Source of the DNA: a virus
Lineage: Duplodnaviria > Caudoviricetes
Reading direction: 5' to 3' (one strand)
IMG/VR virus record: IMGVR_UViG_3300023184_000120
Coordinates: 1-62,833 of that record
Length of the DNA stretch: 62,833 bases
The notes under the pieces were generated by a model. The model was not told the DNA's origin. It saw only the letters and a list, made by a program, of their open reading frames with translations, and did not search any database. The translations under genes were made by a program, and so were the position numbers. This document shows positions 5 through 62,833 of the stretch, piece by piece; within the stretch, counting starts at the first letter, position 1, and every line of letters starts with the position of its first letter.

Positions 5-21
5 GGGGAGTAACTCTCCCC
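5..21. repeat. GGGGAG-N5-CTCCCC palindrome, intergenic copy
   Basis: GGGGAG TAACT CTCCCC read directly; one of seven copies. Confidence 0.85.
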
Positions 22-2203: not shown

Positions 2204-2858
2204 CATTCAAACTGCTTTCAAACAAGCGCTTAGCAAAACCTTACAACAGTGGGATGACGATGGGGAGACAGTCTCCCCACCTTCTACTACTATCAACACT
2301 ACTGTCAACAAAACTGTATCAACTCAGGAAATTCCCATGAAAAAAACTTTTGGCGTAACAAACAACGTCTCACGCGTAACCTTCCAATACATCAAAGACA
2401 ATCCCGGCTCCACGCGAAAAGAAATCATAGAAGCACTGGAGCGTCAAGATTTCAGATCAGACTCTGTGTCTAGCCTGATTGCACAGTTACGTCGCAACAA
2501 CATGGTTCACGAAACCAACAACTTGTACTACGCCGACGTTGACGAGTACCGCCCAATCAAATCGCTCAAGGCCATCAAGAAAATGGAAGCCAAAGCTGAG
2601 CCTGTGCCTAAGCGCAAGTACACTAAGCGTGACGTAACAGGCATTGGTGCGTTGTTGAAGGAGCGGCTAGAGAATATGCCTGCGCCTAGCCAAGCCGCAT
2701 TGGATGCCTCTGCTGCTTTTTCCACGGCTCCTGCACCACAGCGCAGAGCTTTCGTGTCCCTTGTACGCACACGTTCGCCCGAAGATATTTTGAAGGACAT
2801 GACTGTGTATCAGGCGCATGAGTTGTATGTCCACTTGAAGCATATGTTTGGAGGTTAA
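2196..2858 (+). CDS. Putative winged-helix DNA-binding protein
   Basis: YIKDNPGSTRKEII...SVSSLIAQLRRNNMV pattern resembles a wHTH; basic C-terminal half. Confidence 0.55.
   Translation: MPDIQTAFKQALSKTLQQWDDDGETVSPPSTTINTTVNKTVSTQEIPMKKTFGVTNNVSRVTFQYIKDNPGSTRKEIIEALERQDFRSDSVSSLIAQLRRNNMVHETNNLYYADVDEYRPIKSLKAIKKMEAKAEPVPKRKYTKRDVTGIGALLKERLENMPAPSQAALDASAAFSTAPAPQRRAFVSLVRTRSPEDILKDMTVYQAHELYVHLKHMFGG
2262..2278. repeat. GGGGAG-N5-CTCCCC palindrome inside a CDS
   Basis: GGGGAG ACAGT CTCCCC, encodes GETVSP. Confidence 0.85.
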
Positions 2859-6919: not shown

Positions 6920-6930
6920 GAGAAGCAGTA

Positions 6931-7230
6931 TTGAAGTTACCAACAAAAATAAGAGTAGGTAGGCGGTGGTACAGCGTGGAAGTCATTGAAGCTATGATCG
7001 ATAAGACTTACATGGGGCGTGTGCATTATGACGCGCAGCACATTCGTATCGGTACACGCAACCACACAGGCAAGCCGTTCACAAAGCACGAAGTCGGTGA
7101 TACCTTTTGGCATGAGCTTACGCATGCAATCTTGCATGACATGGACAGCCCTTTGTATCGTGACGAGCGTTTTGTATCGGCGTTTGCAACACGGCTTAAC
7201 AGAGCCATTAACACAGCGAAGTTCGAATGA
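6931..7230 (+). CDS. Small HExxH zincin-like metallopeptidase-fold protein
   Basis: TFWHELTHAIL followed by DERFV. Confidence 0.65.
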   Translation: MKLPTKIRVGRRWYSVEVIEAMIDKTYMGRVHYDAQHIRIGTRNHTGKPFTKHEVGDTFWHELTHAILHDMDSPLYRDERFVSAFATRLNRAINTAKFE

Positions 7231-7892
7231 AAAAACCAGCATGGTCACACAGCAGCCTTAAAGATTTTGAAGGTTGCCAGCGCAGGTATCACGAGGTCAA
7301 GGTCTTAAAGAAGTACCCCTTCCAAGAGACTGAAGCCACGCGGTACGGCAATCAGGTACATCAGGCGATTGAAGACTACATCAGGGATCAAAAGCCTATA
7401 CCGCCTGAGTACGAGCAGTTCCAGCCTGTCGTGGACGCCATGCTCAAGAAGCCCGGAAGAAAGCTAGCAGAGTATGAGATGGCGCTACGCGCTGACCTTA
7501 CGCCTACTAACTGGAAAGCACCTGATGTTTGGGTGCGGGGCATCGCTGACATTCTGATCGTTGACGACGAGAATCTTACGGCATGGGTGGGCGACTGGAA
7601 GACCGGCAACAACAAGTACCCCGACAGGGATCAGCTTGTACTAATGTCGCTCATGGTGTTCCAACACTTCCCACACATCCGTAAGGTTAACTCTGCGTTG
7701 CTGTTCATCGTAAAAAATGATATGGTGAAGATGCAGATGACACGCGATCAATCTGAAGCCTTCTGGTGGAAGTATCGTGAGCGTACTGCGCGTCTTGAAG
7801 CATGTTTTGAGACAGACGTATGGAACCCAAATCAAACCCCACTATGCGGCTGGTGTCAGGTCACTGGCTGTGAGTTCAACCCTAAGCATTAG
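7227..7892 (+). CDS. PD-(D/E)XK exonuclease (RecB/Cas4-like)
   Basis: WSHSSL..F..C, G..VH, GIADIL, DWKTG, QL; C-terminal CxxC...C cluster. Confidence 0.88.
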   Translation: MKKPAWSHSSLKDFEGCQRRYHEVKVLKKYPFQETEATRYGNQVHQAIEDYIRDQKPIPPEYEQFQPVVDAMLKKPGRKLAEYEMALRADLTPTNWKAPDVWVRGIADILIVDDENLTAWVGDWKTGNNKYPDRDQLVLMSLMVFQHFPHIRKVNSALLFIVKNDMVKMQMTRDQSEAFWWKYRERTARLEACFETDVWNPNQTPLCGWCQVTGCEFNPKH

Positions 7893-25712: not shown

Positions 25713-25782
25713 TGCTAGTATTCGAATTTTTTTCGGCCACGCGAAACCGATTTAAATGCGCGTGTAACAATTATGCCGTGTT

Positions 25783-27480: not shown

Positions 27481-27482
27481 GT

Positions 27483-28526
27483 TTAATCCTGACCCATTCT
27501 ATAAATAGCTAACTCAGCCAAACCAGCAGGACGATCACCAACGGATCCGCCTTCCGCAAACATACCTAGCTTGCTTGCTCCAATTGCCGCCGTGCCCAAA
27601 CCCGCCGCCTGAGACAACATTGAAGGGGGTGTCTGGTATATAGATGAAGACTGCTGAGTCAATGGCAAGCCGCGCAGAATGTCGGACATGAAGCCCATCT
27701 GTTTGTATGGCGAGTTCTGGTAATTCAGGAAGTCCTGATACTGATTGTTCAGAATGTTCTGTTGTTGCTGTTGTTGCTGCAAACCATACTGGTTCTGCAT
27801 CTGGTTGATGCCCATGTTCTGCTGGTACTGAGTGTTACCCAACTGACCCAAAGCATTTGCGCCTGTCAGCGCTGTTTGTAGACCTTGAAGTCCCAAGCCT
27901 GCGCCAAACTGGCCTTGTTGTGCATTAAGGTTAGCCGCCGCTTGAGTAGCCCCCTGCTCTTGGTTGAACTGCCCCATGCCTTGGGTATACGCGGCTTGCT
28001 GGCCTTGTGCGTAAATATCACCTAATTGACGGTTTAAATTGCCCCTAGCTTGGCCACGCATCAGATAGTCACCACTACCCCCAAACGCGCCTGCACGGGC
28101 GGCTTGGGCACCTTGGGCTTGACTGGCAATAGCCGCTTGACGCGTTGCATCTTGCTGTTGGCGTGCCACCACATTGTTCATGTAGGGCGACATGTAGCTC
28201 TCGGCCATGCCGGGGCTTGTAAACGATTTAGTTTGGAATGGGTTGTATGTATACCCAGTATTGAGCGCACCCAAGCCAGCGGAACCCGCCATAGCCGTTG
28301 CATCTTGCAACTGGGGAGAACCCTGCATCAATGCCGCATTGTCATAGGACATCTGCTGTAAAGGCGCAAACTGCGCTTGACGCTCACCCATGTACTGCTG
28401 ATATGGGTTCTGTGAAGGGTCAGTGTAGCTTTGCGCGGCGCCCAGCAGGTTTTCGACATACGGCTTGGCGTAGTCGGGGATTGAGGTTTGCGATATTTGC
28501 TGTTGCGAGAGTTGTGGTTCAGCCAT
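27483..28526 (-). CDS. Putative DNA pilot/ejection protein (Gln/Ala/Gly-rich)
   Basis: YMSPY, AGAFGGS, poly-Q coiled coil, C-terminal GLG hydrophobic segment. Confidence 0.6.
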   Translation of the reverse strand: MAEPQLSQQQISQTSIPDYAKPYVENLLGAAQSYTDPSQNPYQQYMGERQAQFAPLQQMSYDNAALMQGSPQLQDATAMAGSAGLGALNTGYTYNPFQTKSFTSPGMAESYMSPYMNNVVARQQQDATRQAAIASQAQGAQAARAGAFGGSGDYLMRGQARGNLNRQLGDIYAQGQQAAYTQGMGQFNQEQGATQAAANLNAQQGQFGAGLGLQGLQTALTGANALGQLGNTQYQQNMGINQMQNQYGLQQQQQQQNILNNQYQDFLNYQNSPYKQMGFMSDILRGLPLTQQSSSIYQTPPSMLSQAAGLGTAAIGASKLGMFAEGGSVGDRPAGLAELAIYRMGQD

Positions 28527-28536
28527 GATCTATTCC

Positions 28537-31461
28537 TTAAGCGGGAAGATATTTGTCAGCGCGGCTGTTGGCCGCTACTTTGTTTTTGCCGGTGGTTGCA
28601 CCCCGCGCACGTTGCACACGATCCATCATGGCGTAAAGCTTCTTAGCGCCTGCATCTGTTGAGCCGTTACCTAACTCAGACACGATACGCGCAGGCACTA
28701 CAAACTCACCATCGGCAAGGCGTGCGGGTTGACTCTTAGCGCCAATCGTTGCGGGGATGCTGTCAGACACGCCATCACCGGGGCCTTTGAGCAAACGGCC
28801 ACCATCAGAGTAGCCACCCAATGTGCCAAGACCGCCACCAGAGTAGGGCATACCGCCCATAGCGTAAGCGCGTTGCAAGCCACCAGCAGCTTCGCCGGAA
28901 CCACCACCGTCACCACCACCTTGTGTGGTATCTATTTGGCTACTTGCAGCGGCGGCATCATCGGCTTTCTTTTTATCAGCTTCTGTTTTAGCTTTGGAAC
29001 CTGCGCGGAAGTCAGCGTACACGCTAGAAAGGCTTCGGTTTGTAGCGTCAGCGATCTGTTGGGCAGAAAGGTTGTTGGCTATTGCCCAGTCATACAAGGC
29101 TTGGCCAGACAGGGGGGTATCTTTTAAGGAACTCTTAATGTCATTCAATGACATGCTGTACGTCACGTTACCTTTGTCGTCGCGTCCGGGGGCTATGTAG
29201 TCAGGATTAGGATCCATCTTACCGGTGGCTTTATTGTATATGTATGGCAGGTTGCCCCTTGCCGGGTAGCCCAGCACTGCTGTAGCATAGTCTTGAGAAA
29301 GTTGGCCATCAAAACTGGATTTAGTGGGGTATGCGGCACCGGCTTTACCTGTAAGGTAATCGTACGCGGCTTTGGAATCACCACTCAAGCGGTTAACGTA
29401 TTTTTGAGTAAACTCTTCGGGGGTGTATGTTGGTGATGTGTAGCCCAGACTGCCACCACCTTTTTCATACATATCACGCAGGTTTTTAGAACCCGTGAAA
29501 CCGCCAACTGGGATGTTGGGGATACGTGGTGAAGATGTGATCGTGCGGTTAGGGTTAACCGTTGCGCCACCGCCAATTTGCGATGGGCCTGTGTTACCAG
29601 ACACACCTACGGGCAACGATGTTGCTGGCGCAGTATATAAATTTGTGGGTGTATCTTCAACAGTGGACGTATGCTGTGTTGCGTCTACATTTTTAACAAT
29701 TAACCCATTTTCTAAATGGTAGCCAGACGGTACTATTACGTCGTTACCACCACCGCCTGTAACTGTGGTTACTTTTGCTTGTGGCCCCATTAACTTAGAA
29801 GCTTGGTACAAGTCTAAATTAGATACTGGTGATCCCGTTTGTAGCCCCGCATAGTCTCTAAAGTTATTGTAAATATTTTCAGCCTTGGCGTATGTATTCA
29901 TTACATCTTTGTTGACTGCATCCTTGTACCATTGGGTTTTACGGTCAGCATCAGTTACCTCGCGGCCAAGAACATTTCGCACCCATTCATCAGCAATGTT
30001 GCTAGCATCTGCGGAAGAATACCCTGTGTACCCTTTTTGCGCATCTGCAAGGGATAGGCCAAAATTTCCTGTTTCTTTGTTTGCTTGCGCCCCTCTAATG
30101 AAGTCAGCATACATAGTGGCGCTGTCTTGATTTCCCGAAGTAAGTTGCTGTGTCCAATAAGCCATACCGTTGGGATCAGGATCACGTCCCAGTACATTGC
30201 GATAAACGGTAGCAACGGTAGCTGCGGCTTGTTCGGCAGTTGGGCGTCCTGTAGTTGTGGCCCCGGTTGTAGTTGCACCCGTTGCATTAGCCAAAGTAGC
30301 TAAACCGTTACCTGTAGTTGTAGTTGCGGTTGTATTTGCGGGTTGTAACGCGGCTAAGTTGGCGTTTGCAATGCTTGCGCGTTCTGCCTGCTCTCGACCA
30401 ATACGGGCTATAGCATCGGCGGGTGATTCTGTAGTAGCGGTAGCAGTATTAGCTTGCTGTGCGGGGGGTGTAAACAAGTTAATACCCAAACCAGCCAAAC
30501 CAGAAGTATCAAAACCTTTGTATGTGCTAGCTACATCTGCGGCGGTAATTTTGTTTGTTTGGGCAAGGTCATTAACTTTGCTGTAATCGCCTGCGGCATA
30601 AGCAGCATCTAGTTGGGTTTTGACATCACCACCAATTTCATAGTGCTTAACATCACCACCGCCAGCCAACGCAACAATACCGCCGCCATCTTTGTAACCA
30701 CGGTAGGGATCAGAGAAGCTTCGGCCACTTGTGTTAAACACGCCAGCATCGGTATTGGCAACATCTACAAACTGACGGCCATCCCAACGTTTCTCACGGA
30801 TTCTGCCGGGGCTTTGTACGGGTGCAATTTTGGTAGTTGTAGGAACCATCTGGTCAGCAACAATAGGGGCCGCTGCCGCTGCCAAAGGCATCATATTTTG
30901 TTTGGCAAAGTTCATTGCCGCTGAACCCGAATCTGTAACAGCCCCTAGACCCGCCCCAAGTTTGCTAACCATAGAAGTATCAGCAAGACGTTGTGACGCC
31001 ATTTTTCCAATTTCTTCTTCGCCCAGTTGTCCACTAGCAATTTCGGCGGCTTTATCTCTTGCAAGTTCGCTTGTAATTTGGCTAGACAACGCGCCTTCTC
31101 CAGCGCCCATTAGACTTGCGCCCAGACCCGCACCACCATATGCGCCCAAGCCAGCCATCAAGCCTTTGGACAAGCTACCTGTAGCTAATGCTGTTACACC
31201 TCCAACAGCCGCGCCTGCCATACCCGCAGACATCAAACCAAAACCAGCGGGGCCAAGGGCAAAACCTGCCAACATCGGCAACAACGATTTAAGAAAGTTA
31301 GCTTCGGGTAAACCCGTCTTGGGATTGATTGTGAGCGAGCCGCCATGTTTCATGGCCAAAGCTTGTAACCCCTGCACTTCGTGGGGGGTCATGTGGACAA
31401 GCATTGAATCGCCATTGCGACCCTTTGATGCCATGTGATCGGCTAGTACGTGCAGGCTCAT
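28537..31461 (-). CDS. Putative internal virion protein with TINP.TGLPE N-terminal domain, DUF4214-like repeats and GPGDG.SDSIPA C-terminal domain
   Basis: GRNGDSMLVHM...TINPKTGLPEA; VYRNVLGRDPDPNGMAYW; GPGDGVSDSIPA...RLADGEFVVPA. Confidence 0.6.
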   Translation of the reverse strand: MSLHVLADHMASKGRNGDSMLVHMTPHEVQGLQALAMKHGGSLTINPKTGLPEANFLKSLLPMLAGFALGPAGFGLMSAGMAGAAVGGVTALATGSLSKGLMAGLGAYGGAGLGASLMGAGEGALSSQITSELARDKAAEIASGQLGEEEIGKMASQRLADTSMVSKLGAGLGAVTDSGSAAMNFAKQNMMPLAAAAAPIVADQMVPTTTKIAPVQSPGRIREKRWDGRQFVDVANTDAGVFNTSGRSFSDPYRGYKDGGGIVALAGGGDVKHYEIGGDVKTQLDAAYAAGDYSKVNDLAQTNKITAADVASTYKGFDTSGLAGLGINLFTPPAQQANTATATTESPADAIARIGREQAERASIANANLAALQPANTTATTTTGNGLATLANATGATTTGATTTGRPTAEQAAATVATVYRNVLGRDPDPNGMAYWTQQLTSGNQDSATMYADFIRGAQANKETGNFGLSLADAQKGYTGYSSADASNIADEWVRNVLGREVTDADRKTQWYKDAVNKDVMNTYAKAENIYNNFRDYAGLQTGSPVSNLDLYQASKLMGPQAKVTTVTGGGGNDVIVPSGYHLENGLIVKNVDATQHTSTVEDTPTNLYTAPATSLPVGVSGNTGPSQIGGGATVNPNRTITSSPRIPNIPVGGFTGSKNLRDMYEKGGGSLGYTSPTYTPEEFTQKYVNRLSGDSKAAYDYLTGKAGAAYPTKSSFDGQLSQDYATAVLGYPARGNLPYIYNKATGKMDPNPDYIAPGRDDKGNVTYSMSLNDIKSSLKDTPLSGQALYDWAIANNLSAQQIADATNRSLSSVYADFRAGSKAKTEADKKKADDAAAASSQIDTTQGGGDGGGSGEAAGGLQRAYAMGGMPYSGGGLGTLGGYSDGGRLLKGPGDGVSDSIPATIGAKSQPARLADGEFVVPARIVSELGNGSTDAGAKKLYAMMDRVQRARGATTGKNKVAANSRADKYLPA

Positions 31462-35990: not shown

Positions 35991-36857
35991 TTAGAACGTG
36001 ATAGAACCAGAGGCTGTAAATTGGTAGACCCGAAAGCCTCCAGCCACAGTGATTGTTGGTGAGCCTGTTGTGCTTGTTGCGGCTATGAATGTGTCTGGAT
36101 AGCGGAGGATGACGATACCGCTACCGCCATTGCCTGATGAAGTGCTACCACCTGAACCAACGCCACCAGAACCACCCCCAGTATTTGCTGAAGCATTTGA
36201 AGTGTTGTTTGCGCCTACTGATCCTGCTGAACCACCACCTACCCCACCAGAGCCAGCAGTACCACTTCTTGCACCCCCACCTCCACCACCAGCATAAGTG
36301 GTCACTGTGCCACTAATAGCCGATGCAATTCCAGCACCACCATTTCCACCTACTTGTGGAGACCCATTTATTCCAACAGTCCCTGCTCCACCGCCACCGC
36401 CACTAGCATATCCTGCGGCTGTAAGGTCATTACTACCACCATTATTTCCTTGCCCTGTTATGCCTGTACCACCAACATAAAATGTTCCACCAGAACCTGA
36501 ACCACCACCAGAGCCACCATTTGAAGCGGCTATAGGGCCAGTATTTGGACTTCCACCACCACCGCCTGTAGCAGTAATATTGCCAAAAACAGAGTTACTA
36601 CCAACATTACCACTAGGGCCAGAAGTTCCTCCACCTCCACCACCAACAGTTACAGTAATTGCAGAACCAATAGTTATTCCAGAAAATCCGGCCAATAACC
36701 CACCAGCACCGCCACCACCGCTGTAACTACCACCACCTGTCCCGCCACCAGCAACGATCAAATACTCCACATTCTGTGGAGGCAGTCCTGTCCAGTTGTT
36801 GTCTTTGATGGCTTGGCTTGCCTGAGACAGCGTGTATATGCCGCTATATTGAGCCAC
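35991..36857 (-). CDS. Glycine-rich domain tail/adhesin protein, paralog 4
   Basis: VEYLIVAGGG...GGSGIVILRYP...FTASGSITF. Confidence 0.75.
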   Translation of the reverse strand: MAQYSGIYTLSQASQAIKDNNWTGLPPQNVEYLIVAGGGTGGGSYSGGGGAGGLLAGFSGITIGSAITVTVGGGGGGTSGPSGNVGSNSVFGNITATGGGGGSPNTGPIAASNGGSGGGSGSGGTFYVGGTGITGQGNNGGSNDLTAAGYASGGGGGAGTVGINGSPQVGGNGGAGIASAISGTVTTYAGGGGGGARSGTAGSGGVGGGSAGSVGANNTSNASANTGGGSGGVGSGGSTSSGNGGSGIVILRYPDTFIAATSTTGSPTITVAGGFRVYQFTASGSITF

Positions 36858-36858
36858 G

Positions 36859-37206
36859 TTAGACTCCTTGAGTTACTTCAACCCATGACAATGTTGGCTC
36901 GTCCCATTTGTACATCTTGCCATCTGTCGGCATAGGTGTGGGTGCTTCCCACAGATATGTCTCAGCACTTTTAGTCCATGATGCAAATGGTTGTGGAGGG
37001 GCAAAGCCTGTTCCATCCCATGTGTATGAAATCCCAGCATAGTTTTTATGGAGAGGTCTGCCCTCTGGATGCTGATTACCATGCGTGTTATACGAGGTTT
37101 TCACCCATTCACTTGGATCACCCCAGTGTCCTAAAGCCAAAGTCTCGGCATCAATCACAATTACCTGATCTACGATGCCATTAGTTACATGAGCGTAGTG
37201 CGCCAT
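36859..37206 (-). CDS. Small protein typically accompanying Gly-rich fibre genes (assembly factor or structural)
   Basis: MAHYA, TSYN, KNYAGI, F.PPQPF.SW, WEAP.PMP, Y.WDE. Confidence 0.65.
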   Translation of the reverse strand: MAHYAHVTNGIVDQVIVIDAETLALGHWGDPSEWVKTSYNTHGNQHPEGRPLHKNYAGISYTWDGTGFAPPQPFASWTKSAETYLWEAPTPMPTDGKMYKWDEPTLSWVEVTQGV

Positions 37207-37843
37207 TTTGAGTCCTTTCAGTGTTCAAAAAATATTTCCATTCAGCCATTGTTTTGGCATTCTTGCTAGAGTTGCAACTCAAACATAATGGTTGCAGATT
37301 TCCAATGCTGTGTCTACCACCACGAGCAACAGGAATGATATGGTCAATTGTTACTCTTTCCGTTGTACCACAGGCAATACATGGGGAAGAATACAATTTA
37401 ATCAATTCTTTTTCACTGACCTGATACACACCATTTGAGCGTTTTCTAGCCCTGTACTTGTGTGCTTTTTCAGCCATCTTTGGCAAATGTTGTAACCTGT
37501 AGCGTTCTAAAGCACTTTTAATTGCTTCAGGATTTTGCAATTTCCAAGCATTTTTAACCGCTCTACGATGCTCAATGTTTTCCGCATATTGCCGTCTACC
37601 CGCTTCACGGGATTTTTCAGGATTATTCTTACGCCACTTTTTTAAGTGTTCATATTGTTCAGGTCGATGCGCTTTTTGATAAGCCGCCCGTTTAACTTTG
37701 ACTGTTTCTTTGTTGTCAATGTAATACTGCCGACCATAAGCCTTTTTACATTCTTTACAAACGGCTATAGGTTTGTTTCTGCACAAATGAAACAAGTCAA
37801 CTGATTTCTCAGTTTGGCATTTGGTACAAGTCTTTGTTTCCAT
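37181..37843 (-). CDS. HNH homing endonuclease
   Basis: CTKC/CKEC zinc finger; CIACG..DHIIP..GG..NLQPLC..CN..K. Confidence 0.9.
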   Translation of the reverse strand: METKTCTKCQTEKSVDLFHLCRNKPIAVCKECKKAYGRQYYIDNKETVKVKRAAYQKAHRPEQYEHLKKWRKNNPEKSREAGRRQYAENIEHRRAVKNAWKLQNPEAIKSALERYRLQHLPKMAEKAHKYRARKRSNGVYQVSEKELIKLYSSPCIACGTTERVTIDHIIPVARGGRHSIGNLQPLCLSCNSSKNAKTMAEWKYFLNTERTQNGALRSCN

Positions 37844-38721
37844 CAGAAAGTTACCGTTCCGCTAGAAGTCCATATATAAATTTGGTAGTTGTCAGCATAC
37901 AAGATCTGTGGTGAACCAGTTGTTGCAGTTGGTGCTGATTGTGTTGCAGGGTAACGAATAATTACGATGCCAGAACCGCCAGCAGCTCCAACTTTTCCAT
38001 CGTAATAATCACTTCCTCCACCACCGCCTCCACCAGAGTTAGTTGTTCCAGAAGTAGCAGCTATAACAGTAATACCACACCCACCATTTCCACCGCCACC
38101 ACCACCACCAAGTGCGGGAATTCCTGCGGTAAGTTGCCATTGACCACCACCACCACCTCCAGCATAAAAAACACGCTGACCAGTAATAGTTGAGCAAAAT
38201 CCTGTACCACCACTTGCGCCAACTTGAACAGCCGCAGTTGCATTAAGGCCAACAGATCCTGCACCACCACCACCACCACCTCCACCAATATAAGCTGTAG
38301 AAGCACCAGTTCCACCAGCGTTTCCTTGCCCTGATGTTGCAGATCCACCAGCAGAACCTGAGTTTATTGCTGCAGAACCACCACCTCCAGAGCCTCCAGT
38401 TGCACCAGTAGCAGTACCTGAGTTATTTCCACCACCACCACCTCCTGTAGAAGTAATACTTGAAAATACAGAACTTCCACCATTTCCACCAGCATCACTA
38501 ACAGCCCCACCAGTACCTCCTGCACCAATAGTAATGGTCAATGCAGTACCAGTAGCAACAGCAAAGCCAGCCGCAGTCAAAAGACCACCCGCACCACCAC
38601 CGCCTCCTACTCGACCACCACCGCCACCACCACCAGCAACCACTAGATATTCAACAGTCGTAGGCGCACCAGATAAAGGATTAAATGTTGCAGAAATAAA
38701 ACCACCTAAGTTACTACTCAT
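37843..38721 (-). CDS. Glycine-rich domain tail/adhesin protein, paralog 3
   Basis: VEYLVVAGGGGGG...GGSGIVIIRYP...SGTVTF. Confidence 0.75.
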   Translation of the reverse strand: MSSNLGGFISATFNPLSGAPTTVEYLVVAGGGGGGGRVGGGGGAGGLLTAAGFAVATGTALTITIGAGGTGGAVSDAGGNGGSSVFSSITSTGGGGGGNNSGTATGATGGSGGGGSAAINSGSAGGSATSGQGNAGGTGASTAYIGGGGGGGGAGSVGLNATAAVQVGASGGTGFCSTITGQRVFYAGGGGGGQWQLTAGIPALGGGGGGGNGGCGITVIAATSGTTNSGGGGGGGSDYYDGKVGAAGGSGIVIIRYPATQSAPTATTGSPQILYADNYQIYIWTSSGTVTF

Positions 38722-38729
38722 GTTATTCC

Positions 38730-39626
38730 TTAAAAGGTGATTGAACCGCTAGATGTAAATGTGTAAACAGTCCATCCAGTAATAGATGTTTTTGTTCCAT
38801 TGGTTACGCTTGCAGCATCAGCAAATGTGCTTGGGTAGCGAATGATGACAATGCCAGAGCCGCCTGCGCCAGAAGTCTGTGCGATACTTGCACCACCTCC
38901 ACCTCCACCTGTATTTGCAGTTCCATTGGTAGCGGCAACAACAGTAGGATGAGAAGAACCTGTGCCACCAGAACCACCGCCACCAACTCCACCAACTCCA
39001 AGAGTTCCTACGTTGTGAACAGCCCCACCACCACCCCCTGCGTAGGTTGTAACTGTTCCAGATATAGCACTAGCGATACCTGCACCGCCTCTACCACCAT
39101 ACCCTGACGACCCATCTGCCCCATTAAGCCCAACAGTTCCTGCGCCACCACCACCGCCTGTACCATAGGCTGTACTAGTATCTGTAGTAGAGCCTGAACC
39201 ACCAGTATTTCCTTGTCCAGATATTCCACTAGCGGGCGCTGTTTTTGTAGTCACATAAGCAACGCCACTACCGCCACCGCCAGAACCACCTGAACCTGCT
39301 GTTACTACTCCAGAGCTACCATAGCCACCACCAGTAGCAGAAATGGAAGAAAAGACAGACGCTACACCTGCTCCTGCTTGGACGTTATATGCTGAGGCTG
39401 ATGCGCCACCACCACCAACAGTAACTGTAATGGACGAGCCAGTAGCAACAGGCAATATGCCAGTTAATAATCCACCAGCACCCCCTCCTGCTCCAAGACC
39501 AGAACCGCCCCCTGCGCCTCCAGCAACAACTAAATACTCAACCCAACCAGTTTTCTGCGTACCACTCCATGCCTTTTGTCTAAGTGCTTGGTTTTGTTGT
39601 CTGAGAGTAAAAAGACCCGTTGCCAT
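38730..39626 (-). CDS. Glycine-rich domain tail/adhesin protein, paralog 2
   Basis: VEYLVVAGG...GGSGIVIIRYP...SGSITF. Confidence 0.75.
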   Translation of the reverse strand: MATGLFTLRQQNQALRQKAWSGTQKTGWVEYLVVAGGAGGGSGLGAGGGAGGLLTGILPVATGSSITVTVGGGGASASAYNVQAGAGVASVFSSISATGGGYGSSGVVTAGSGGSGGGGSGVAYVTTKTAPASGISGQGNTGGSGSTTDTSTAYGTGGGGGAGTVGLNGADGSSGYGGRGGAGIASAISGTVTTYAGGGGGAVHNVGTLGVGGVGGGGSGGTGSSHPTVVAATNGTANTGGGGGGASIAQTSGAGGSGIVIIRYPSTFADAASVTNGTKTSITGWTVYTFTSSGSITF

Positions 39627-39635
39627 TTTTATCCC

Positions 39636-40508
39636 TTAGAAAGTAATCGTGCCAGAGGCAACGAATCTGTACACACGCCAAAAGCCTGTGACATAAGTTT
39701 CTGGTGAGCCTGTTGTGGATGTAGCAGGGGCTAAGTAAGAGGGATAGCGGATGATTACGATTCCAGAACCGCCTGTGCCGCCCAAGAAATTAACTGTGTC
39801 ATTAGATGAACCACCACCACCGCCAGAGCCTGTATTTGCTATTCCAGCATTGCCTACACCACCATTTGGTGTTCCTGCATTGCCACCTCCAGCAACGCCA
39901 AACTCAATAGAACCCCCGTTGTAAGTGCCACCGCCACCACCGCCAGCATATTGAAGTGCTGAACCAGAGATAGAAGAATTAGTGCCTGTGCCACCACTTG
40001 CGCCTTTAGTAGCTGTTGCGGCTATGCCCACTGACCCGCTTCCACCGCCACCACCAGCGGCATAATTTGGTGCAGAAAACAATCCTGCCCCACCAGCAAA
40101 TCCTTGCCCAGAAGTTCCTGCACCGCCAGAAGTTTGTCCAGAAGTACCACCACCTCCACCACCGCCAGAGCCGCCTGTTGACCTAGGGTCTCCACCAGCA
40201 CCACCTCCACCACCACCGCCTGTTGCAGTAATAGAACTAAAAACAGAATTTGAGCCGTTAGCACCATTATTTAATGTACTTGCGCCACCAGCACCAATAG
40301 TTATTGTGTAAGAAGTTCCAATAGTGACAGAAAGACCCGTAGCGGTTAACAGACCACCAGCACCACCGCCACCTCCAGTACCATTTCCAGCTTGAACGCC
40401 ACCACCACCACCCCCGCCAGCCACGACAAGGTATTCCACCGCTGTGACAGGGTAGTTAATGCCGTTAAGCCCAGCAGAGACAATGTTTCCCGTATATCGG
40501 AGTCCCAT
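39636..40508 (-). CDS. Glycine-rich domain tail/adhesin protein, paralog 1
   Basis: VEYLVVAGGGGGG...GGSGIVIIRYP...SGTITF. Confidence 0.75.
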   Translation of the reverse strand: MGLRYTGNIVSAGLNGINYPVTAVEYLVVAGGGGGGGVQAGNGTGGGGGAGGLLTATGLSVTIGTSYTITIGAGGASTLNNGANGSNSVFSSITATGGGGGGGAGGDPRSTGGSGGGGGGGTSGQTSGGAGTSGQGFAGGAGLFSAPNYAAGGGGGSGSVGIAATATKGASGGTGTNSSISGSALQYAGGGGGGTYNGGSIEFGVAGGGNAGTPNGGVGNAGIANTGSGGGGGSSNDTVNFLGGTGGSGIVIIRYPSYLAPATSTTGSPETYVTGFWRVYRFVASGTITF

Positions 40509-56505: not shown

Positions 56506-57076
56506 CTGTCTTCTCTTGCGTCACATCAACCACATCGATCACACCCATGAACCTGTTGAGCTTGTCTTTAATGCGTGTCTCTAGCTCTACGTCCGACATG
56601 GTTTCTTTTTTGACCTCAACCCGTTCAGTAAACAGCGCCACCTCCGTCACCGTCCCCAACATCTGCAATGCTTTAAGGCGTATGCGTGCGTCTGGATGTT
56701 TGACTTCGTCTAGGATCTTAGCCACTGCGTAGCCCCTAAGCTCTCTGGCCTGCTCGACAAACGCCCAATCGTAGGCAGTGAGCATACCCACTAAATGCTG
56801 CACCGCAGCAGGAGCCTTAATGTTAGCAAGCGCTTGCTGTGTGTTCTGTGGTGGCTGGCCTGTGACTAAAGAAGCAAAGGAATTCCTTGCCGCCTGAGCG
56901 TCTGCCTTGGACTCTGCTTCATCGTCGTCTAGCTCTAACTCTTTTAGCCAGTTTGCCGTTTGGACTTGTGCGTCAATGATGTCTGCTGGCGCTGCGTCAG
57001 CAAAAGGCAACGGCGTAGCCGTGGTCATATCGACCACGCTTGGTTCAAACTCGCCGTTAATCAAATGTTCTAGCAT
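56495..57076 (-). CDS. terS: Putative terminase small subunit
   Basis: Directly upstream of and overlapping TerL; RLKALQMLG...V.LF motif. Confidence 0.65.
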   Translation of the reverse strand: MLEHLINGEFEPSVVDMTTATPLPFADAAPADIIDAQVQTANWLKELELDDDEAESKADAQAARNSFASLVTGQPPQNTQQALANIKAPAAVQHLVGMLTAYDWAFVEQARELRGYAVAKILDEVKHPDARIRLKALQMLGTVTEVALFTERVEVKKETMSDVELETRIKDKLNRFMGVIDVVDVTQEKTDEA

Positions 57077-57142
57077 TGCGTAGGTTGGCGCCGGAGCTGC
57101 CCCTGCGGGCGCTCACTTGGCGCTTGTTGCCTCGTTGCAGTT

Positions 57143-57172
57143 AGTGTACACTTCTTTTCGGCAATGGTGCAA
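57143..57172 (-). promoter_or_regulatory. Sigma70-like promoter for the packaging/structural operon
   Basis: TTGCAC-18 nt-TACACT on the - strand, about 65 bp upstream of terS. Confidence 0.55.
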
Positions 57173-57218
57173 GTTTTTGTTCTGTTGCTTCTCCTTGATG
57201 GATGGTTGCCATCCTCTT

Positions 57219-57253
57219 TGCCCCACTAGTTGACGCTGGTGGGGCATTTTTTT
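57219..57253 (+). terminator. Intrinsic terminator-like hairpin
   Basis: TGCCCCACTAG...CTGGTGGGGCA followed by T7. Confidence 0.6.
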
Positions 57254-57262
57254 ATATAGTAT

Positions 57263-57278
57263 TGTCCAACGTTTGACA
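57263..57278. promoter_or_regulatory. 16-bp operator-like palindrome
   Basis: TGTCCAACGTTTGACA, matches copies at 1943 and 9743. Confidence 0.55.
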
Positions 57279-57512
57279 TGGTACCTTAGAAATTTTTTAA
57301 AATTTTATGGGGGGTGGGGTGTTGCGGTCAGGAATTTGAAAAATTGGATTTGTGGTTATGAAACAGTGTTTATAGCCGCTAGCTACCACGTTCTCACATA
57401 GGGGAGTGGGGGATGGGTGGGGTTCTTTGTATTCAGATATAGCCCCCAAAGCAGAATAAAGTACCCATTTGGTAATATAGAGACATCGGTTGGGAGATAG
57501 CCCAGCCGATAC

Positions 57513-57529
57513 GGGGAGACATTCTCCCC
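57513..57529. repeat. GGGGAG-N5-CTCCCC palindrome, intergenic
   Basis: GGGGAG ACATT CTCCCC. Confidence 0.85.
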
Positions 57530-57562
57530 GATACAACCATTAGTCAATTCAAGGAGAACACC

Positions 57563-58033
57563 ATGACTAAAGCTAAAGCAATCACACTTTCATTCGAGCA
57601 ATTCGCAGAGGGCTGTGGCAGATCAGATGGCATGACACTCAACGCAAGTGATGAGTACCACAAGCAATACCTACGGCTAGACTCTGACGGCAAGGCGAAC
57701 TGGGAACAACGCTATGTGTGCAACTACATTGTCGGCTACACCGATTCACGCAAGACCATGCCAAGCATGACGCTCAAGCAAGCAACTGATGCCTTCGGCA
57801 TGAAGCGCACAGAACGCTCACGCAACGAGGAACTAGCCGTCAATGCGGGCAAGGCAAAGTTCCGCTACCACATCAGTCGCCCTGAGAAATCAAGTGGCAA
57901 GAAACCTGTGGTGCGCTTCACCGCAGAGCAACGCACCGCTTGCGACAATGCCTTGGCATCTTTCCCTGCTACCAAGCTTGCAGATCAGATCAAGATGTTG
58001 CGTGCTTACCTGACTTCTTTAGAAGCTCAATAA
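57563..58033 (+). CDS. First early gene, hypothetical protein
   Basis: AAGGAG RBS; first ORF of the + arm; flanked on both sides by the palindrome. Confidence 0.75.
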   Translation: MTKAKAITLSFEQFAEGCGRSDGMTLNASDEYHKQYLRLDSDGKANWEQRYVCNYIVGYTDSRKTMPSMTLKQATDAFGMKRTERSRNEELAVNAGKAKFRYHISRPEKSSGKKPVVRFTAEQRTACDNALASFPATKLADQIKMLRAYLTSLEAQ

Positions 58034-58036
58034 TCT

Positions 58037-58053
58037 GGGGAGACTTTCTCCCC
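58037..58053. repeat. GGGGAG-N5-CTCCCC palindrome, intergenic
   Basis: GGGGAG ACTTT CTCCCC. Confidence 0.85.
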
Positions 58054-58145
58054 GATTCTCCAGATCACCGCAAGGGCGAGGCTCTTGCGGTGTTTCTTTT
58101 CCTGTCCAATTCGTTTCACTCAATAATCTCAAGGAGTCAATAATC

Positions 58146-58244
58146 ATGAGCAAACAACACCTTTCCCTCATCAAACAGATCATGTATCACGCATATCGTG
58201 AGGCGTGCCGTAACAACCGCCCCATGTCAATCATCATTCGTTGA
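58146..58244 (+). CDS. 32-aa peptide (MSKQHLSLIKQIMYHAYREACRNNRPMSIIIR)
   Basis: Translated by hand; AAGGAG RBS. Confidence 0.55.
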   Translation: MSKQHLSLIKQIMYHAYREACRNNRPMSIIIR

Positions 58245-58256
58245 AAGGAGATCGTC

Positions 58257-58496
58257 ATGCGTAACCTCATTCAGCCCATCACAAAAGAGCGTGGCACTAT
58301 TCGTGTCGGTGGCTTTGACTACCATATGCAAACCATCAGCTACGGCTCACAGAACCACATCCATGTCTTTCGCAAGCAAGCACCGCACAAGCGAGGGCTT
58401 GTCTTCCTCAACGCACAGGAATACATAGCATGGATGAACAATAGTGCTCAACTAAAGCTGCCTTTTGGGGAGACTTCCTCCCCAACTGCACTATAG
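58257..58496 (+). CDS. Small early hypothetical protein
   Basis: AAGGAG RBS; ORF track. Confidence 0.7.
   Translation: MRNLIQPITKERGTIRVGGFDYHMQTISYGSQNHIHVFRKQAPHKRGLVFLNAQEYIAWMNNSAQLKLPFGETSSPTAL
58467..58483. repeat. GGGGAG-N5-CTCCCC palindrome inside a CDS
   Basis: GGGGAG ACTTC CTCCCC, encodes GETSSP. Confidence 0.85.
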
Positions 58497-58499
58497 TGC

Positions 58500-58860
58500 G
58501 AGATTATTGAGGCAAAAAACAAGACACGGCCAAATGTCCAACACTACAACCCGTTGACTAATTTGCGTGTAACCCTCTAACCCGCATGAACACTAGCGTT
58601 GCGCAAAAACTGTCCTTTCTATCTATCTATATAATATATAAATAGATATAGATATGTATGTATCAGGGGGTGAGCATTTCCGCTTTCTCAAAGACTTTCT
58701 TTTTTTGTTTGGCTATAGCCGTTCAGAAATAAGGTAGATACATCGGACACTTTTCGTGCTAAGCTAGCACTGGTGCGGGTTCAGAACCTACACGCTTCTT
58801 AGTCCACGCCCTGTAGTGTTGGACATTTGGCCGCCCCTCAATTTTGGAGTCAATAATCTC
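58500..58860. repeat. 130-bp imperfect inverted repeat around an AT-rich core, candidate replication origin
   Basis: Arms 58500-58629 and 58731-58860 align without gaps (92/130 by hand count); perfect 22-bp core at 58527-58548 and 58812-58833. Confidence 0.8.
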
Positions 58861-59565
58861 ATGTACGAAACCTACATCAAACTTACGCCTAACGAGTTAC
58901 ACAACCGCTTGGTCGAGCGCAAGCTACACGAATCCGAGATCGAACGCATCAAGGCAGAGGTAGCTGACCTCAAGGAATCCTTGCGGGTGAGCAGAATAAC
59001 CAAAACCCAGCGGGAAGCCGAATGGCTTAAGGTGCTGCAACCCCTGCGCTACGAGATCAATAATGCCAAGGTTGGCATGAAATACGGCGGGGAGAAAGTC
59101 TCCCCAGAACGGGCGCTAGCTTTCAGCGAATACATACGCATCATGGAGAAGCTCGTGGCTATGCTCGATGCCCCATCGAAGGCACTCGATCACACGCCCA
59201 TACAGATAGCCCGTGACAAGGGACTGCCCAACGATGGCGAGCACTGGACAGACTGGATACCGGCACGGGTCAAAGACAAGATAGCCTTGCTGTTTGACGC
59301 AGTACCCATCACACCAAGGGGCAAGCGCAAGATACCCTTCCAACGCACGATGCTGCCCCACCAGCACGAGACAGCCAAGGTGAGATTATTGACCAAGACA
59401 AGAAAGGAGATGGAATCCATCATGCGTCAAGCTGGAATCCAGCCTACGCAAGCACGCTTAGACAAGATAGCCAAGATGAAGCGAGCACTCAAGATTATTG
59501 AGGCGCTCGATAAGAACGAAGCAGTGCCAGCTACATGGACAAAACTAAACCTAGGGGGGGACTAA
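58861..59565 (+). CDS. Helical, basic early hypothetical protein
   Basis: GGAG RBS before ATG 58861; HWTDWIP motif. Confidence 0.75.
   Translation: MYETYIKLTPNELHNRLVERKLHESEIERIKAEVADLKESLRVSRITKTQREAEWLKVLQPLRYEINNAKVGMKYGGEKVSPERALAFSEYIRIMEKLVAMLDAPSKALDHTPIQIARDKGLPNDGEHWTDWIPARVKDKIALLFDAVPITPRGKRKIPFQRTMLPHQHETAKVRLLTKTRKEMESIMRQAGIQPTQARLDKIAKMKRALKIIEALDKNEAVPATWTKLNLGGD
59089..59105. repeat. GGGGAG-N5-CTCCCC palindrome inside a CDS, spacer inverted
   Basis: GGGGAG AAAGT CTCCCC is the reverse complement of the ACTTT copies; encodes GEKVSP. Confidence 0.85.
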
Positions 59566-59584
59566 CTACTGTCAACAAATCTTT

Positions 59585-59601
59585 GGGGAGACTTTCTCCC
59601 C
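59585..59601. repeat. GGGGAG-N5-CTCCCC palindrome, intergenic
   Basis: GGGGAG ACTTT CTCCCC. Confidence 0.85.
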
Positions 59602-59664
59602 GAAATGTTCGGCGCTTGGGCAATGCCGTTCACCATCCGCAACCTGCCTACAAGGAGAATCAAA

Positions 59665-59907
59665 ATGAAACTATCCGTAACCATGCTTGACAACAACACC
59701 AAGAGTGCCGTCATCAATGTCGGAAAAAACAACGGGTATATCGAGGCTTTTGTGTGGGAGGGTATTTTGAGCCTCTACGTGTTTAACAAAGAAGGTGACG
59801 TAGTGCATAACTATGCCATCACAGCCAAGGACTTGCGTGCAGAAGGCGGTTGCACTACGCCTAAGTTCGAGCCTGCACAAGAACACTACGAAGGAGAATC
59901 AAAATGA
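59665..59907 (+). CDS. Early hypothetical protein
   Basis: AAGGAGAATCAAAATG start context. Confidence 0.7.
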   Translation: MKLSVTMLDNNTKSAVINVGKNNGYIEAFVWEGILSLYVFNKEGDVVHNYAITAKDLRAEGGCTTPKFEPAQEHYEGESK

Positions 59908-60182
59908 ATTATGAAGGACAAGCTAAAGAGTGGATACAAGACGCACCGCAAATAGACATCCATATTGGGCGGTTCACGCTCAGATTCAAATTGACCATCG
60001 ACAGAGATTGGGGCTGGGCTTGGGAGTATATGAGTTGGCTTGTGCCAGACGATTTCCGAGGCTCGCCTGAGGAGGAGTATTTCTTCGAGCTTTTTGATGA
60101 TTCAAACGCCAGTACGCACGACATGGATTTCATTGACGTACTACTCAAAGAAATGAAAGAGAAACCATTTAAAGGAGAGTGA
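59904..60182 (+). CDS. Early hypothetical protein
   Basis: Identical AAGGAGAATCAAAATG start context; coupled. Confidence 0.7.
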   Translation: MNYEGQAKEWIQDAPQIDIHIGRFTLRFKLTIDRDWGWAWEYMSWLVPDDFRGSPEEEYFFELFDDSNASTHDMDFIDVLLKEMKEKPFKGE

Positions 60183-60493
60183 GCATGGGATTAGATATCA
60201 ACATCCTTAGCGTGCATCGTGCCGTTACTACAAAGCCAGCCGATGCCTACCTCGGCTCACGCTATGACGCAAACCCAAGATGGAAGCAAGTCGCCTACGA
60301 TCGAGACGCTTGGGACTTGCATGAATTACTTGCCAAGCTATATCACAAACAAGGAGGGACACAAGAGGAATTTAACAACGTGAATGTGCGCTTGTACAAG
60401 CGTGACCTACACCTGTTCTATGCACCACTAGCCGAAACGATTTTCGAACACATGAAGCAAGGGCGAGTCGTGTACGCCGAATCTAGTTTTTAA
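60179..60493 (+). CDS. Early hypothetical protein
   Basis: MGLD..., FNNVNVRL, V.Y.SSF pattern seen in small phage proteins. Confidence 0.7.
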   Translation: MSMGLDINILSVHRAVTTKPADAYLGSRYDANPRWKQVAYDRDAWDLHELLAKLYHKQGGTQEEFNNVNVRLYKRDLHLFYAPLAETIFEHMKQGRVVYAESSF

Positions 60494-60508
60494 CCAAGGA
60501 GAAAGCAA

Positions 60509-60727
60509 ATGACCAAAGTCAAACACCTGTCCAACACGCAGCTTGTACACAAGCTCATGAGCAACCCCAACCCGCTGATGCAGGCGTTCGTGATCGAAGC
60601 GATACGACACTACGCAGACCAAACCAAGCTCTCACCATCATGGTCAAGCCAAGGGTTCATAAGCGAAGCCGCATGGCGTGCGTGTGCTGAAGAGGCACTG
60701 GAAGCAATCAACAACAGGAGTAAATGA
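60509..60727 (+). CDS. Early hypothetical protein
   Basis: AAGGAG RBS; LMQAFVIEAI..YA...FIS..AW. Confidence 0.7.
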   Translation: MTKVKHLSNTQLVHKLMSNPNPLMQAFVIEAIRHYADQTKLSPSWSSQGFISEAAWRACAEEALEAINNRSK

Positions 60728-60728
60728 G

Positions 60729-60902
60729 ATGAAACTAACAGTAATCAAAACAAACGATGGGTACATGGTCGAGGATGACACAGGCGACTACATCCATGAC
60801 ATCAACGGCAACAACCTGTTTGATACCCACTCTGAGGCTGAAGATCTGATGCACACACACCTCATGACCTTCGGCACAGATTCAGATAACGGAATGGAGT
60901 AA
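60729..60902 (+). CDS. Small acidic hypothetical protein
   Basis: AGGAG RBS; start moved to MKLTVIK. Confidence 0.6.
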   Translation: MKLTVIKTNDGYMVEDDTGDYIHDINGNNLFDTHSEAEDLMHTHLMTFGTDSDNGME

Positions 60903-60905
60903 AGC

Positions 60906-61145
60906 ATGAGAGTAGTCCGTATTCGTATACACGGGAGATACACAGCCCCATTCAATAACCCGTTCACGGCTAACGCTGTGGTCATGCCAGTTGAGTTATC
61001 CGACTCGATGCGTGATGAGGTACTCAAGAAGTACAAGGATGCCCACTATGTGTTCGATGCAGGCAACCCAATCGTGGGCGAGCACAACACGTTCGAGGTG
61101 TATTCGTTCGATGTAATAGATGACATGGAGGTATCGCTAGCCTGA
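60906..61145 (+). CDS. Early hypothetical protein
   Basis: GGAG RBS; ORF track. Confidence 0.65.
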   Translation: MRVVRIRIHGRYTAPFNNPFTANAVVMPVELSDSMRDEVLKKYKDAHYVFDAGNPIVGEHNTFEVYSFDVIDDMEVSLA

Positions 61146-61179
61146 GCAACAGGCGTGTTAGTTAGTGTGTTAGTTCATT

Positions 61180-61201
61180 CGGGGACTTGTCCCCGATCTT
61201 T
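61180..61201 (+). terminator. Hairpin with CUUG tetraloop before the amidoligase RBS
   Basis: CGGGGA-CTTG-TCCCCG followed by ATCTTT. Confidence 0.45.
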
Positions 61202-61223
61202 ATAAATCAAGGAGAAATAATAT

Positions 61224-62833
<1,610 letters not shown>

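Follow-up and report, generated by a model that had tools for sequence, protein, structure and literature searches.

Lineage-specific stem-loops in the early region of a freshwater podophage group change together with part of the first early protein

Why does a phage carry the same short palindrome over and over among its early genes and nowhere else? The question is raised by the IMG/VR virus record IMGVR_UViG_3300023184_000120, classed as linear and 99% complete, whose whole length of 62,833 bp is called the window here. The motif GGGGAG-N5-CTCCCC occurs in it seven times (H1 to H7, Table 1) where no copy is expected: none of 100 shuffled versions of the 62,833 bp contained any match, and a scan of the whole record that allowed one mismatch added no site. 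All seven copies lie in the early region, the plus-strand block that adjoins the terminase genes and runs from 57.5 kb to the end of the record and then from 1 to 2.3 kb, and there are none in the other ~55 kb, as had already been noticed when the letters of the window were first read by themselves (the sequence-only reading). That reading took the palindromes for protein-binding sites or extrudable hairpins that tag the first-injected DNA, an interpretation that our analysis supports in part. The observations from which we argue are the early-only enrichment, the concerted change of the stem between lineages, the placement at cistron ends, the terminator behind the second hairpin, and the co-variation of the stem with the N-terminal domain of the protein encoded by the first early gene, g1. 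From these we infer RNA as the active form, binding by g1 and an effect on termination; tentatively, and with somewhat less than even confidence, we propose that the palindromes are terminator-type RNA stem-loops that are read by g1 and control termination in the early operon, in a layout like that of lambda N/nut.

The spacing of the palindromes is constant, with five nucleotides between 6-bp arms at 7/7 sites, as first described; in five of the seven, however, the outermost bases of the spacer pair with each other as well, and these copies really have 7-bp arms, GGGGAGA and TCTCCCC, around a 3-nt loop. The predicted energies of the RNA hairpins range from -11.8 to -15 kcal/mol. One spacer is indeed inverted, the AAAGT at 59089 being the exact reverse complement of the ACTTT at 58037 and 59585. 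The lack of U-tracts that had been reported holds at six of the seven sites; the seventh, H6, is followed by ATTCTTTT and was flagged as terminator-like. Three copies had been counted as lying inside coding sequences. H4 is truly internal, in a variable and indel-rich linker of the early gene g4, where it is present in a close sub-clade only and its stem follows the type of each genome; H3, by comparison, falls at the very end of its open reading frame (ORF), and H7 lies near the 5' end of an ORF for which an alternative ATG exists at 2337. Orthologous copies of H7 are present in the relatives L206 and L212.

The palindromes of the window are one instance of something much wider. Among 80 loci centred on related terminase genes, 21 carry at least three copies of one 6-N5-6 palindrome, with arms unlike those of the window. 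A scan for families of hairpins with a stem of at least 5 bp and a loop of 3-5 nt (L043, a tandem repeat, was dropped) grouped 220 hairpins in 50 sequences, that is, the window and 49 of 79 terminase-centred loci; the loci lacking a family are mostly short fragments. With loci centred on g4, 47 of 50 have one. The loci with a family carry 3-10 hairpins at the same gene boundaries and each lineage has its own stem, among them GGGGAA-CTTG, GGGGAG-ATTT, GGGGAC-TCA, GGGGAA-AGGT, CGGGTCA, GCGGACA, TGGGAC, GTGGAC, TGTGTCA, GTTGACA (10 copies), GGGGTA, CGATTCA and others. In close relatives the positions and flanks are kept, and where the stem differs it does so at every position. Confinement to a short region recurs as well: when the full records of two complete relatives (61,887 bp and 65,655 bp) were scanned, 6/6 copies fell within 24,992-30,933 and 5/5 within 5,104-7,833, stretches of 6 kb and 2.7 kb respectively. 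The hairpin family is real and is a feature of the whole clade, far broader than the window, and the claim that the palindromes form a non-random early-region family is borne out.

The positions of the hairpins relative to genes were analysed in a hand-picked sample of 25 genomes, one per hairpin type and with near-duplicates dropped. The majority of the 123 hairpins are intergenic (96), and the others overlap a stop codon (7), fall within the final 15 codons of a gene (6) or the first 25 codons by crude ORF calls (4), or are internal (10). A hairpin starts at a median of 9 nt past the previous stop codon, with 57% starting within 15 nt of it, and ends at a median of 55 nt before the next start codon. 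The hairpins are tied to the preceding stop, and theirs is therefore the placement of a 3'-end element and not that of a promoter or an operator. With intrinsic terminators the hairpins share a GC-rich stem-loop placed where genes end. The other feature of such terminators, a U-tract, is present at a minority of copies only: the flanks are rich in A from -5 to -3 and in T from +2 to +6, the frequency of T downstream on the sense strand is 0.34 against a background of 0.205, and at least five T within the next eight bases are found behind 22 of the 123 hairpins in the sense direction and behind 11 in the antisense direction.

Hairpins and terminators also replace one another. Behind the ORF 48-1154 the window has an ordinary intrinsic terminator with a UUCG loop, and at the orthologous site of L223 (12741-12757) a family hairpin forms the terminator stem; the same swap is seen in L225 and L226, with the flanks and the ATTTTT tail unchanged. 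The argument by which the sequence-only reading had dismissed terminators is not supported by these results, given the median distance to stop codons, the U-tracts and the exchanged stem. A strong intrinsic terminator stands behind H2, and H2 with this terminator (58066-58092) folds at -36 kcal/mol. By a strict rule, 15 of the 25 lineages have a strong terminator 5-21 nt behind exactly one hairpin, usually that which follows g1; this hairpin is the second in 10 lineages, the first of the locus in 4 and the fifth in 1; in several of the other 10 an imperfect terminator can be seen there by eye. At the upstream end, a candidate extended -10 element, TGGTAATAT, precedes H1, and its TGnTA core is kept in 5/7 aligned sequences. 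The extended -10 pattern gave no conserved second promoter besides the one at 57470, and sigma-70-like promoter sites are not enriched in 56900-62833, where 2 were found against 6.9 expected.

The type of the hairpin changes together with the N-terminal domain of g1. This gene follows the first hairpin, encodes 125-164 amino acids depending on the sequence, and lies between two hairpins in 27 of the 33 sequences in which the ORF was found, the next hairpin lying -4 to +11 nt from its stop codon. In the g4-centred set the dominant types are GGGGAGA-N3 (12 loci and the window), GGGGAG-N4 (12) and GGGGAA-N4 with C-loops (10). In 12/12 loci of the window's own type, g1 is 66-88% identical to that of the window; among loci of the other two types, the 21 with a g1 match reach 39-53%. 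For the small terminase subunit (TerS), g3, g4, g8, g10, g11 and g12 the identity ranges overlap fully between types. When congruence was measured as the number of changes of hairpin type required on the maximum-likelihood tree of each protein, the N-domain of g1 (residues 1-105; 34 rows, 24 distinct) needed two, the minimum; the C-terminal module of g1 (34 rows) and g3 (29 rows) needed five each, g10 (19 rows) six, TerS (30 rows), g8 (21 rows) and g11 (17 rows) seven each, and g4 (31 rows) eight. In the N-domain tree the clade of the window's type has a Shimodaira-Hasegawa-like approximate likelihood ratio test (SH-aLRT) support of 100, and GGGGAG-N4 is nested in GGGGAA-N4; for TerS, an approximately unbiased (AU) test rejects monophyly of the window's type. 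The same holds in more distant lineages, where the further types GGGGAA-AGGT, GGGGAC-N3 and GGGGAA-N3 each have their own subfamily of the g1 N-domain. The C-terminal module exists in at least two unrelated forms, both of which occur in the GGGGAGA-N3 and the GGGGAA-N4 types, and H2, which lies 3 nt behind the coding sequence of this module, is always of the genome's type even where the module has been swapped. Both g1 and g4 had been put forward as binders of the palindromes: g1, as far as phylogenies can indicate, keeps this candidacy as the only tested protein congruent with hairpin type, while the tree of g4 does not track it.

The structural model of g1 is all-helical, with a predicted local distance difference test (pLDDT) score of 85, and consists of five helices in residues 10-103, a basic linker and two further helices. 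It has no Foldseek match at E <= 0.001, and its best VIA match has a Z of 4.6; no Pfam family was found in 21 homologues and no PHROG family matched, and a profile of g1 against PDB sequences gave a best E-value of 0.087. The fold and family comparisons barely cover the C-terminal module. An assignment of the C-terminal modules as ribbon-helix-helix, made by eye from a strand-helix-helix pattern, found no support in Pfam and was dropped. The protein encoded by g4 (58861-59565) is a core early protein with 427 homologues, none of them named, and with the conserved motifs LPNDGEHWTDWIP and KRKxPFQRT; its model, too, is all-helical (pLDDT 90.5), and Foldseek gave no match for it at E <= 0.001.

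Must a trans-acting factor be invoked at all? The hairpins might be ordinary terminator, attenuator or 3'-stabiliser stem-loops that travel with gene cassettes and are homogenised by recombination, much like the stem-loop half of the PeSL (promoter-early stem-loop) cassettes in T4-like phages. Their positions at cistron ends and the U-tracts would be expected of such elements, gene content varies between H2 and H3 and between H5 and H6, off-type hairpins occur at distal sites, and homology between relatives often breaks within ~10-70 nt of hairpins, in the gaps that bear them, although any gene boundary would show the same. PeSL are repeated terminator-like stem-loops that likewise have a lineage-specific consensus; they are found among early ORFs, where they flank variable cassettes (PMC4122927, in its account of these elements). 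A PeSL, however, combines the stem-loop with a sigma-70 promoter, and no promoter half was found here; the conserved unit in our sequences spans only 16-17 bp between flanks that are not conserved, a short length for homologous conversion. Moreover, a homogenisation of this kind sits poorly with an H2 that keeps the genome's type beside a swapped C-terminal module of g1, and with the perfect congruence of the g1 N-domain, unlike the other genes tested; a co-varying protein is not described for PeSL in that account (PMC4122927). We therefore regard an explanation without a dedicated factor as improbable.

If g1 is the factor, the element it recognises could be a folded strand or duplex DNA. The arms are perfect in all copies, and copy-specific extensions of the stem by at least two pairs are found at 16 of 109 hairpins compared with 7.5% in slid controls (p = 0.007), one copy in L079 being extended to a 14-bp stem. 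These copy-specific extra pairs and the swap with a terminator stem point to a folded strand, and the suggestion that the palindromes behave as hairpins is strengthened by the perfect arms and the extra pairs. Loops are reverse-complemented at orthologous sites (CTTG/CAAG, ATTT/AAAT, CTT/AAG), and the loop of H3 is among those flipped in relatives. Since the arms form a perfect palindrome, an inverted element leaves the RNA stem unchanged, so that the loop flips do not speak against a role as RNA.

The main rival to our proposal keeps the same pair of partners and places them on duplex DNA, where the 17-bp palindromes would be operators or roadblocks for a dimeric g1 that auto-regulates its cassette and shuts off or gates early transcription, in the manner of the stoperators of mycobacteriophages or the inverted repeats of phiC31. 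Such recognition would account equally well for the co-variation with g1, and would suit invariant arms around a spacer that varies and inverts, a spacing that is fixed within each genome, and the tolerance of a copy inside a gene. Single stem mismatches show no excess of G-U over A-C on the sense strand, which suits duplex sites or at least does not speak against them, in a test on imperfect stems whose outcome was mixed and consisted mostly of register artefacts. The strand-helix-helix pattern seen by eye in the C-terminal modules of g1, which had no tool support, would resemble ribbon-helix-helix dimers. However, the placement follows stop codons and not promoters, and promoter-like sites in the early region are fewer than expected. 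All copies are perfect palindromes, whereas natural sets of operators are usually imperfect ones; the copy-specific extra pairs and the exchange with a terminator stem suit a folded strand; and Pfam has no DNA-binding family for the 21 homologues of g1. An action of g1 on duplex DNA is on this evidence unlikely.

According to the proposal that we favour, the palindromes would be copies of one short stem-loop (7 bp and 3 nt) that forms in early transcripts at the 3' ends of cistrons, where terminators sit, and each lineage would have its own stem, the same at all copies, to be read by the N-domain of g1. The layout would consist of a host-type promoter, a hairpin, g1, a hairpin, a strong terminator and the rest of the operon. 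As this is the pL-nutL-N-tL1 arrangement of lambda, an action of g1 on nascent-RNA hairpins that alters RNA polymerase at terminators appears the most likely mechanism. Our best guess is that g1 gives read-through of the terminator behind its own gene and of the hairpin-terminators located downstream; an effect of opposite sign, in which termination or shut-off would depend on g1, is possible.

The N/nut system of lambda has two nut sites, each with a boxB hairpin whose loop is a pentaloop and with a boxA, and an arginine-rich N peptide. The likeness lies in the order of promoter, leader hairpin, small first gene, terminator and remainder of the operon, with H1 placed 33 nt ahead of g1, H2 separated by 12 nt from a terminator stem of 12 bp and this layout kept across lineages, and in a hairpin that is lineage-specific and co-varies with part of a modular first protein. 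The differences are considerable: there are 5-10 copies here against two; conservation lies in the stem, while the loop varies freely and can be inverted, with no conserved pentaloop; no boxA-like flank was found, the flanks showing only A-rich and T-rich trends; and g1 is not similar to N, a folded helical domain of 100 residues standing in place of an arginine-rich peptide. That g1 founds a new class of regulator, in which a ~100-residue helical domain of novel fold reads the stem and not the loop of a 7-bp hairpin at 5-10 cistron ends, we consider doubtful. If it were so, each lineage of a very abundant freshwater phage group would punctuate its early transcripts with a code of its own, the specificity groups would diverge quickly, like the immunity groups of temperate phages, and terminators could be brought under control, and recruited into the regulon, by conversion of the stem alone. 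A g1 that reads stems would offer compact, naturally diversified and orthogonal protein-hairpin pairs of at least six specificity types, for studies on the evolution of regulatory specificity and as parts, and the hairpins with g1 would be a testable entry into the scheduling of early genes in a lytic podophage that has no detectable RNA polymerase of its own.

Several points weigh against this proposal. Most copies have no terminator behind them, and one conserved copy sits within a gene. A conserved stem with loops that vary and flip is unlike boxB and fits recognition of duplex DNA at least equally well; the G-U excess is missing as well. The distal copies are at times off-type or missing (L206, L222, L223, L236 and window position 61179). 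With g4, the AU test gives p = 0.13 and hence no rejection of congruence with hairpin type, and the contrast between g1 and other proteins is therefore drawn partly on poorly resolved trees with many near-identical rows. As H1 lies 33 nt from the sequence encoding the N-domain, the co-variation could reflect linkage to a 'master' hairpin combined with gene conversion. Finally, g1 has no recognisable nucleic-acid-binding family or fold, and the contigs from RNA runs are uninformative on transcript ends.

Table 1. Hairpins of the window and the genes, signals and terminators discussed with them.
Feature	Position	Strand	Remarks
Candidate extended -10 element TGGTAATAT	57470..57478	+	~35 nt upstream of H1; putative early promoter for host RNA polymerase, consensus match only
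H1 hairpin GGGGAGA-CAT-TCTCCCC	57513..57529	+	Leader, 33 nt 5' of the g1 start; position kept in 7/7 aligned relatives
g1, first early gene, 156 aa	57563..58033	+	N-domain, ~residues 1-105, candidate hairpin-specificity factor; C-terminal module swappable
H2 hairpin GGGGAGA-CTT-TCTCCCC	58037..58053	+	3 nt past the g1 stop
Strong intrinsic terminator, 12-bp stem + TTTCTTTT	58066..58102	+	12 nt past H2
H3 hairpin GGGGAG-ACTTC-CTCCCC	58467..58483	+	Last 10 codons of ORF 58257-58496
H4 hairpin GGGGAGA-AAG-TCTCCCC	59089..59105	+	Inside g4 (58861-59565); loop orientation inverted
H5 hairpin GGGGAGA-CTT-TCTCCCC	59585..59601	+	19 nt past the g4 stop
Off-type or degenerate copy TCGGGGA-CTTG-TCCCCGA (GGGGA-CTTG-TCCCC)	61179..61196	+	Upstream of amidoligase gene; full family hairpin at this site in relatives
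H6 hairpin GGGGAG-TAACT-CTCCCC + ATTCTTTT	5..21	+	Between amidoligase gene and ORF 48-1154; identical copy at orthologous L212 site
Ordinary intrinsic terminator, UUCG loop	1161..1178	+	After ORF 48-1154
H7 hairpin GGGGAGA-CAG-TCTCCCC	2262..2278	+	66 nt into winged-helix ORF 2196-2858
Polyvalent protein, 3668 aa	14706..25712	-	Coiled-coil-like N-terminal half, zincin HEGTH motif, C-terminal LPD38

A quite different way in which hairpins can serve early transcription is known from phage N4, in which DNA hairpins are promoters, three of them early; in the related description of LUZ7 there are nine early start sites, and the stems are of 5-7 bp or at least 4 bp around a 3-nt loop (both as given in the accounts of PMC4496689 and PMC9163698). 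Promoters of this type keep one orientation, with loop and stem bases conserved on the template strand, and transcription begins 11-14 nt downstream of the loop centre. On this reading the sites of the window would be hairpins extruded from supercoiled DNA for a genome-injected RNA polymerase, carried by the giant protein of 3668 aa. The geometry agrees, with a short GC-rich stem of 5-7 bp, a 3-nt loop, several copies and confinement to the early region; the gene for the giant virion protein adjoins those for ejection proteins, and sigma-70-like promoters are depleted in the early region. The giant protein, however, matches LPD38 alone, the Pfam model of the virion RNA polymerase domain not being among its matches, and it has no sequence match to solved structures in the PDB. 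Neither a T7-type motif B nor DxDGD was found in six frames outside the DNA polymerase. The giant protein has 244 homologues, none with a named function; of these, the 120 listed have LPD38 only, save two with one extra family and two with none, and relatives of the LPD38 part in isolated phages are fused to a methylase or to RelA/SpoT, none of these phages being N4-like. A tblastn search with its first 2669 residues gave no match, and the ESM Atlas gave no usable match for residues ~2100-3140. We read it as a polyvalent ejected protein, in the sense in which the term is introduced in PMC5512222, and not as a polymerase. The hairpins themselves also depart from the N4 pattern: loops differ between copies and flip at orthologous sites where a fixed orientation would be expected, a strong terminator lies 12 nt past H2, and the coupling is to the stop codon upstream and not to the start codon downstream. 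Because no RNA polymerase was found, hairpin promoters of the N4 type are highly unlikely, although a very divergent virion RNA polymerase is possible.

Other repeated sites of phages offer partial parallels. Early transcripts of T7 contain RNase III sites, ~50-nt structures that are cut by the host enzyme. In both cases similar hairpins punctuate a polycistronic early transcript, including before and after the first gene; the 7-bp stem, however, is too short for RNase III, nor was a candidate nuclease found here, g4 being all-helical. The conserved inverted repeats of phiC31 are comparable to the stoperator type of site. Stoperators resemble the hairpins in that one short site recurs at numerous gene boundaries. 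They differ in that they are asymmetric, oriented, distributed genome-wide and bound by a monomeric helix-turn-helix immunity repressor, against perfect palindromes in the early region only. According to PMC9283540, stoperators in cluster A mycobacteriophages evolve together with a phage protein and act on elongation, not on initiation. A literature search on repeated early-region stem-loops with antitermination in podoviruses found nothing relevant.

The idea that the palindromes mark the DNA that enters first, so as to serve its internalisation, a pause in injection, a partition-like localisation or protection from host defence, has in its favour the restriction of the sites to the neighbourhood of the terminase genes and a likely genome end. 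The ends of the record had been treated as joined; in 10/10 relatives ~490-515 bp lie between positions 62833 and 1, so that the record is no circular join. The piece absent from it corresponds to the 3' end of the amidoligase gene, and H6, given this ~0.5 kb, is therefore intergenic and lies shortly 3' of the amidoligase stop codon in relatives (~17 nt in L212, as judged by eye). With a linear record that lacks ~0.5 kb, the genome ends are not established, and among the early genes scanned there is no partition-type or defence-related protein. A marking of DNA would moreover leave both the placement at stop codons and the interchange with a terminator stem unexplained, and we consider it very improbable.

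The phage itself is a lytic freshwater podophage without a detectable RNA polymerase gene, of a group abundant in lakes and rivers. On the plus strand are genes for a family A DNA polymerase, a helicase and a primase-helicase, and on the minus strand those for the large terminase, the portal, the major head protein, an ejection protein and the 3668-aa protein; no repressor or integrase was found among the genes scanned, no early-region gene has a known function, and no tRNA genes were found. By terminase the nearest isolates are pelagiphages of the HTVC023P type, at ~50-53% identity. The closest, Pelagibacter phage HTVC027P (53%; 41,383 bp), differs in gene order and has no repeated hairpin family, and papers on phages of the HTVC023P type proved silent about promoters, hairpins and RNA polymerase. 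Relatives by terminase number at least 600 stretches in IMG/VR. A DNA search with the early region against 50,697 phage records gave no match. Runs that contain parts of the early region come from lake, river and viral metagenomes of 10 studies, together with one metatranscriptome and one possible RNA run that hold small shares of it. Among 185,579 species genomes, at least 120 stretches contain GGGGAGA-N3-TCTCCCC; 79 of the 80 among the matches listed have a single site, in unrelated taxa, and no host candidate emerged. Rfam has no family at threshold for 57000-62833, the single match, NsiR1, scoring 24.8 bits, below its gathering score of 39.

The early region contains further elements of its own. 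A second clustered motif, TCAATAATC, occurs exactly eight times in the window, seven of them within 1.5 kb of the early region (58027-59501) and in both orientations; several copies lie between a Shine-Dalgarno sequence and a start codon (58120, 58137, 58850), and the 9-mer is repeated 7-8 times in L005 and L023 as well. Repeats of ACTATCAAC near H5 and H7 are not enriched in the window. Between H3 and g4 the non-coding stretch 58500-58860 is a large inverted repeat: two 72-nt arms, at 58500-58571 and 58789-58860, show 78% complementarity and enclose an AT-rich core of 217 nt that contains short ATAGATAT-like repeats. Relatives keep the first ~35 bases of this stretch, which could serve as an origin or a promoter region or be a small inserted element. 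Two G-rich blocks between the small terminase gene and H1, at ~57308-57325 and 57400-57425 on the plus strand, are kept in 7/7 aligned relatives, the second having four G-runs in a quadruplex-like pattern. Directly behind H5 lies a non-coding element of ~45 nt (59602-59650; GGCG..GGGCAATGCCG..CACCATCC), which is kept, with paired changes, where the downstream gene differs between lineages and looks like a small structured leader.

Towards the end of the early region the gene for an amidoligase-domain protein (61224-62831) is followed by that for a protein starting MCLII (48-1154; phrog_25883), which by eye is of the Ntn type and amidotransferase-like; the pair is 65-94% identical across hairpin types. 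Within the amidoligase gene, an Asp-rich GAT/GAC repeat at 62084-62120 draws unrelated reads in public runs. The same plus-strand block encodes a small Hjc-like Holliday-junction resolvase (3904-4206; Pfam E-value 1.6e-5), and enzymes of this type would cut stably extruded cruciforms. Elsewhere, the minus-strand interval 35991-40508 contains a group of four adjacent paralogues, each coding for ~290 aa and three standing in tandem; all align with one and the same part of phrog_2295, and the GC skew of this region is strongly negative.

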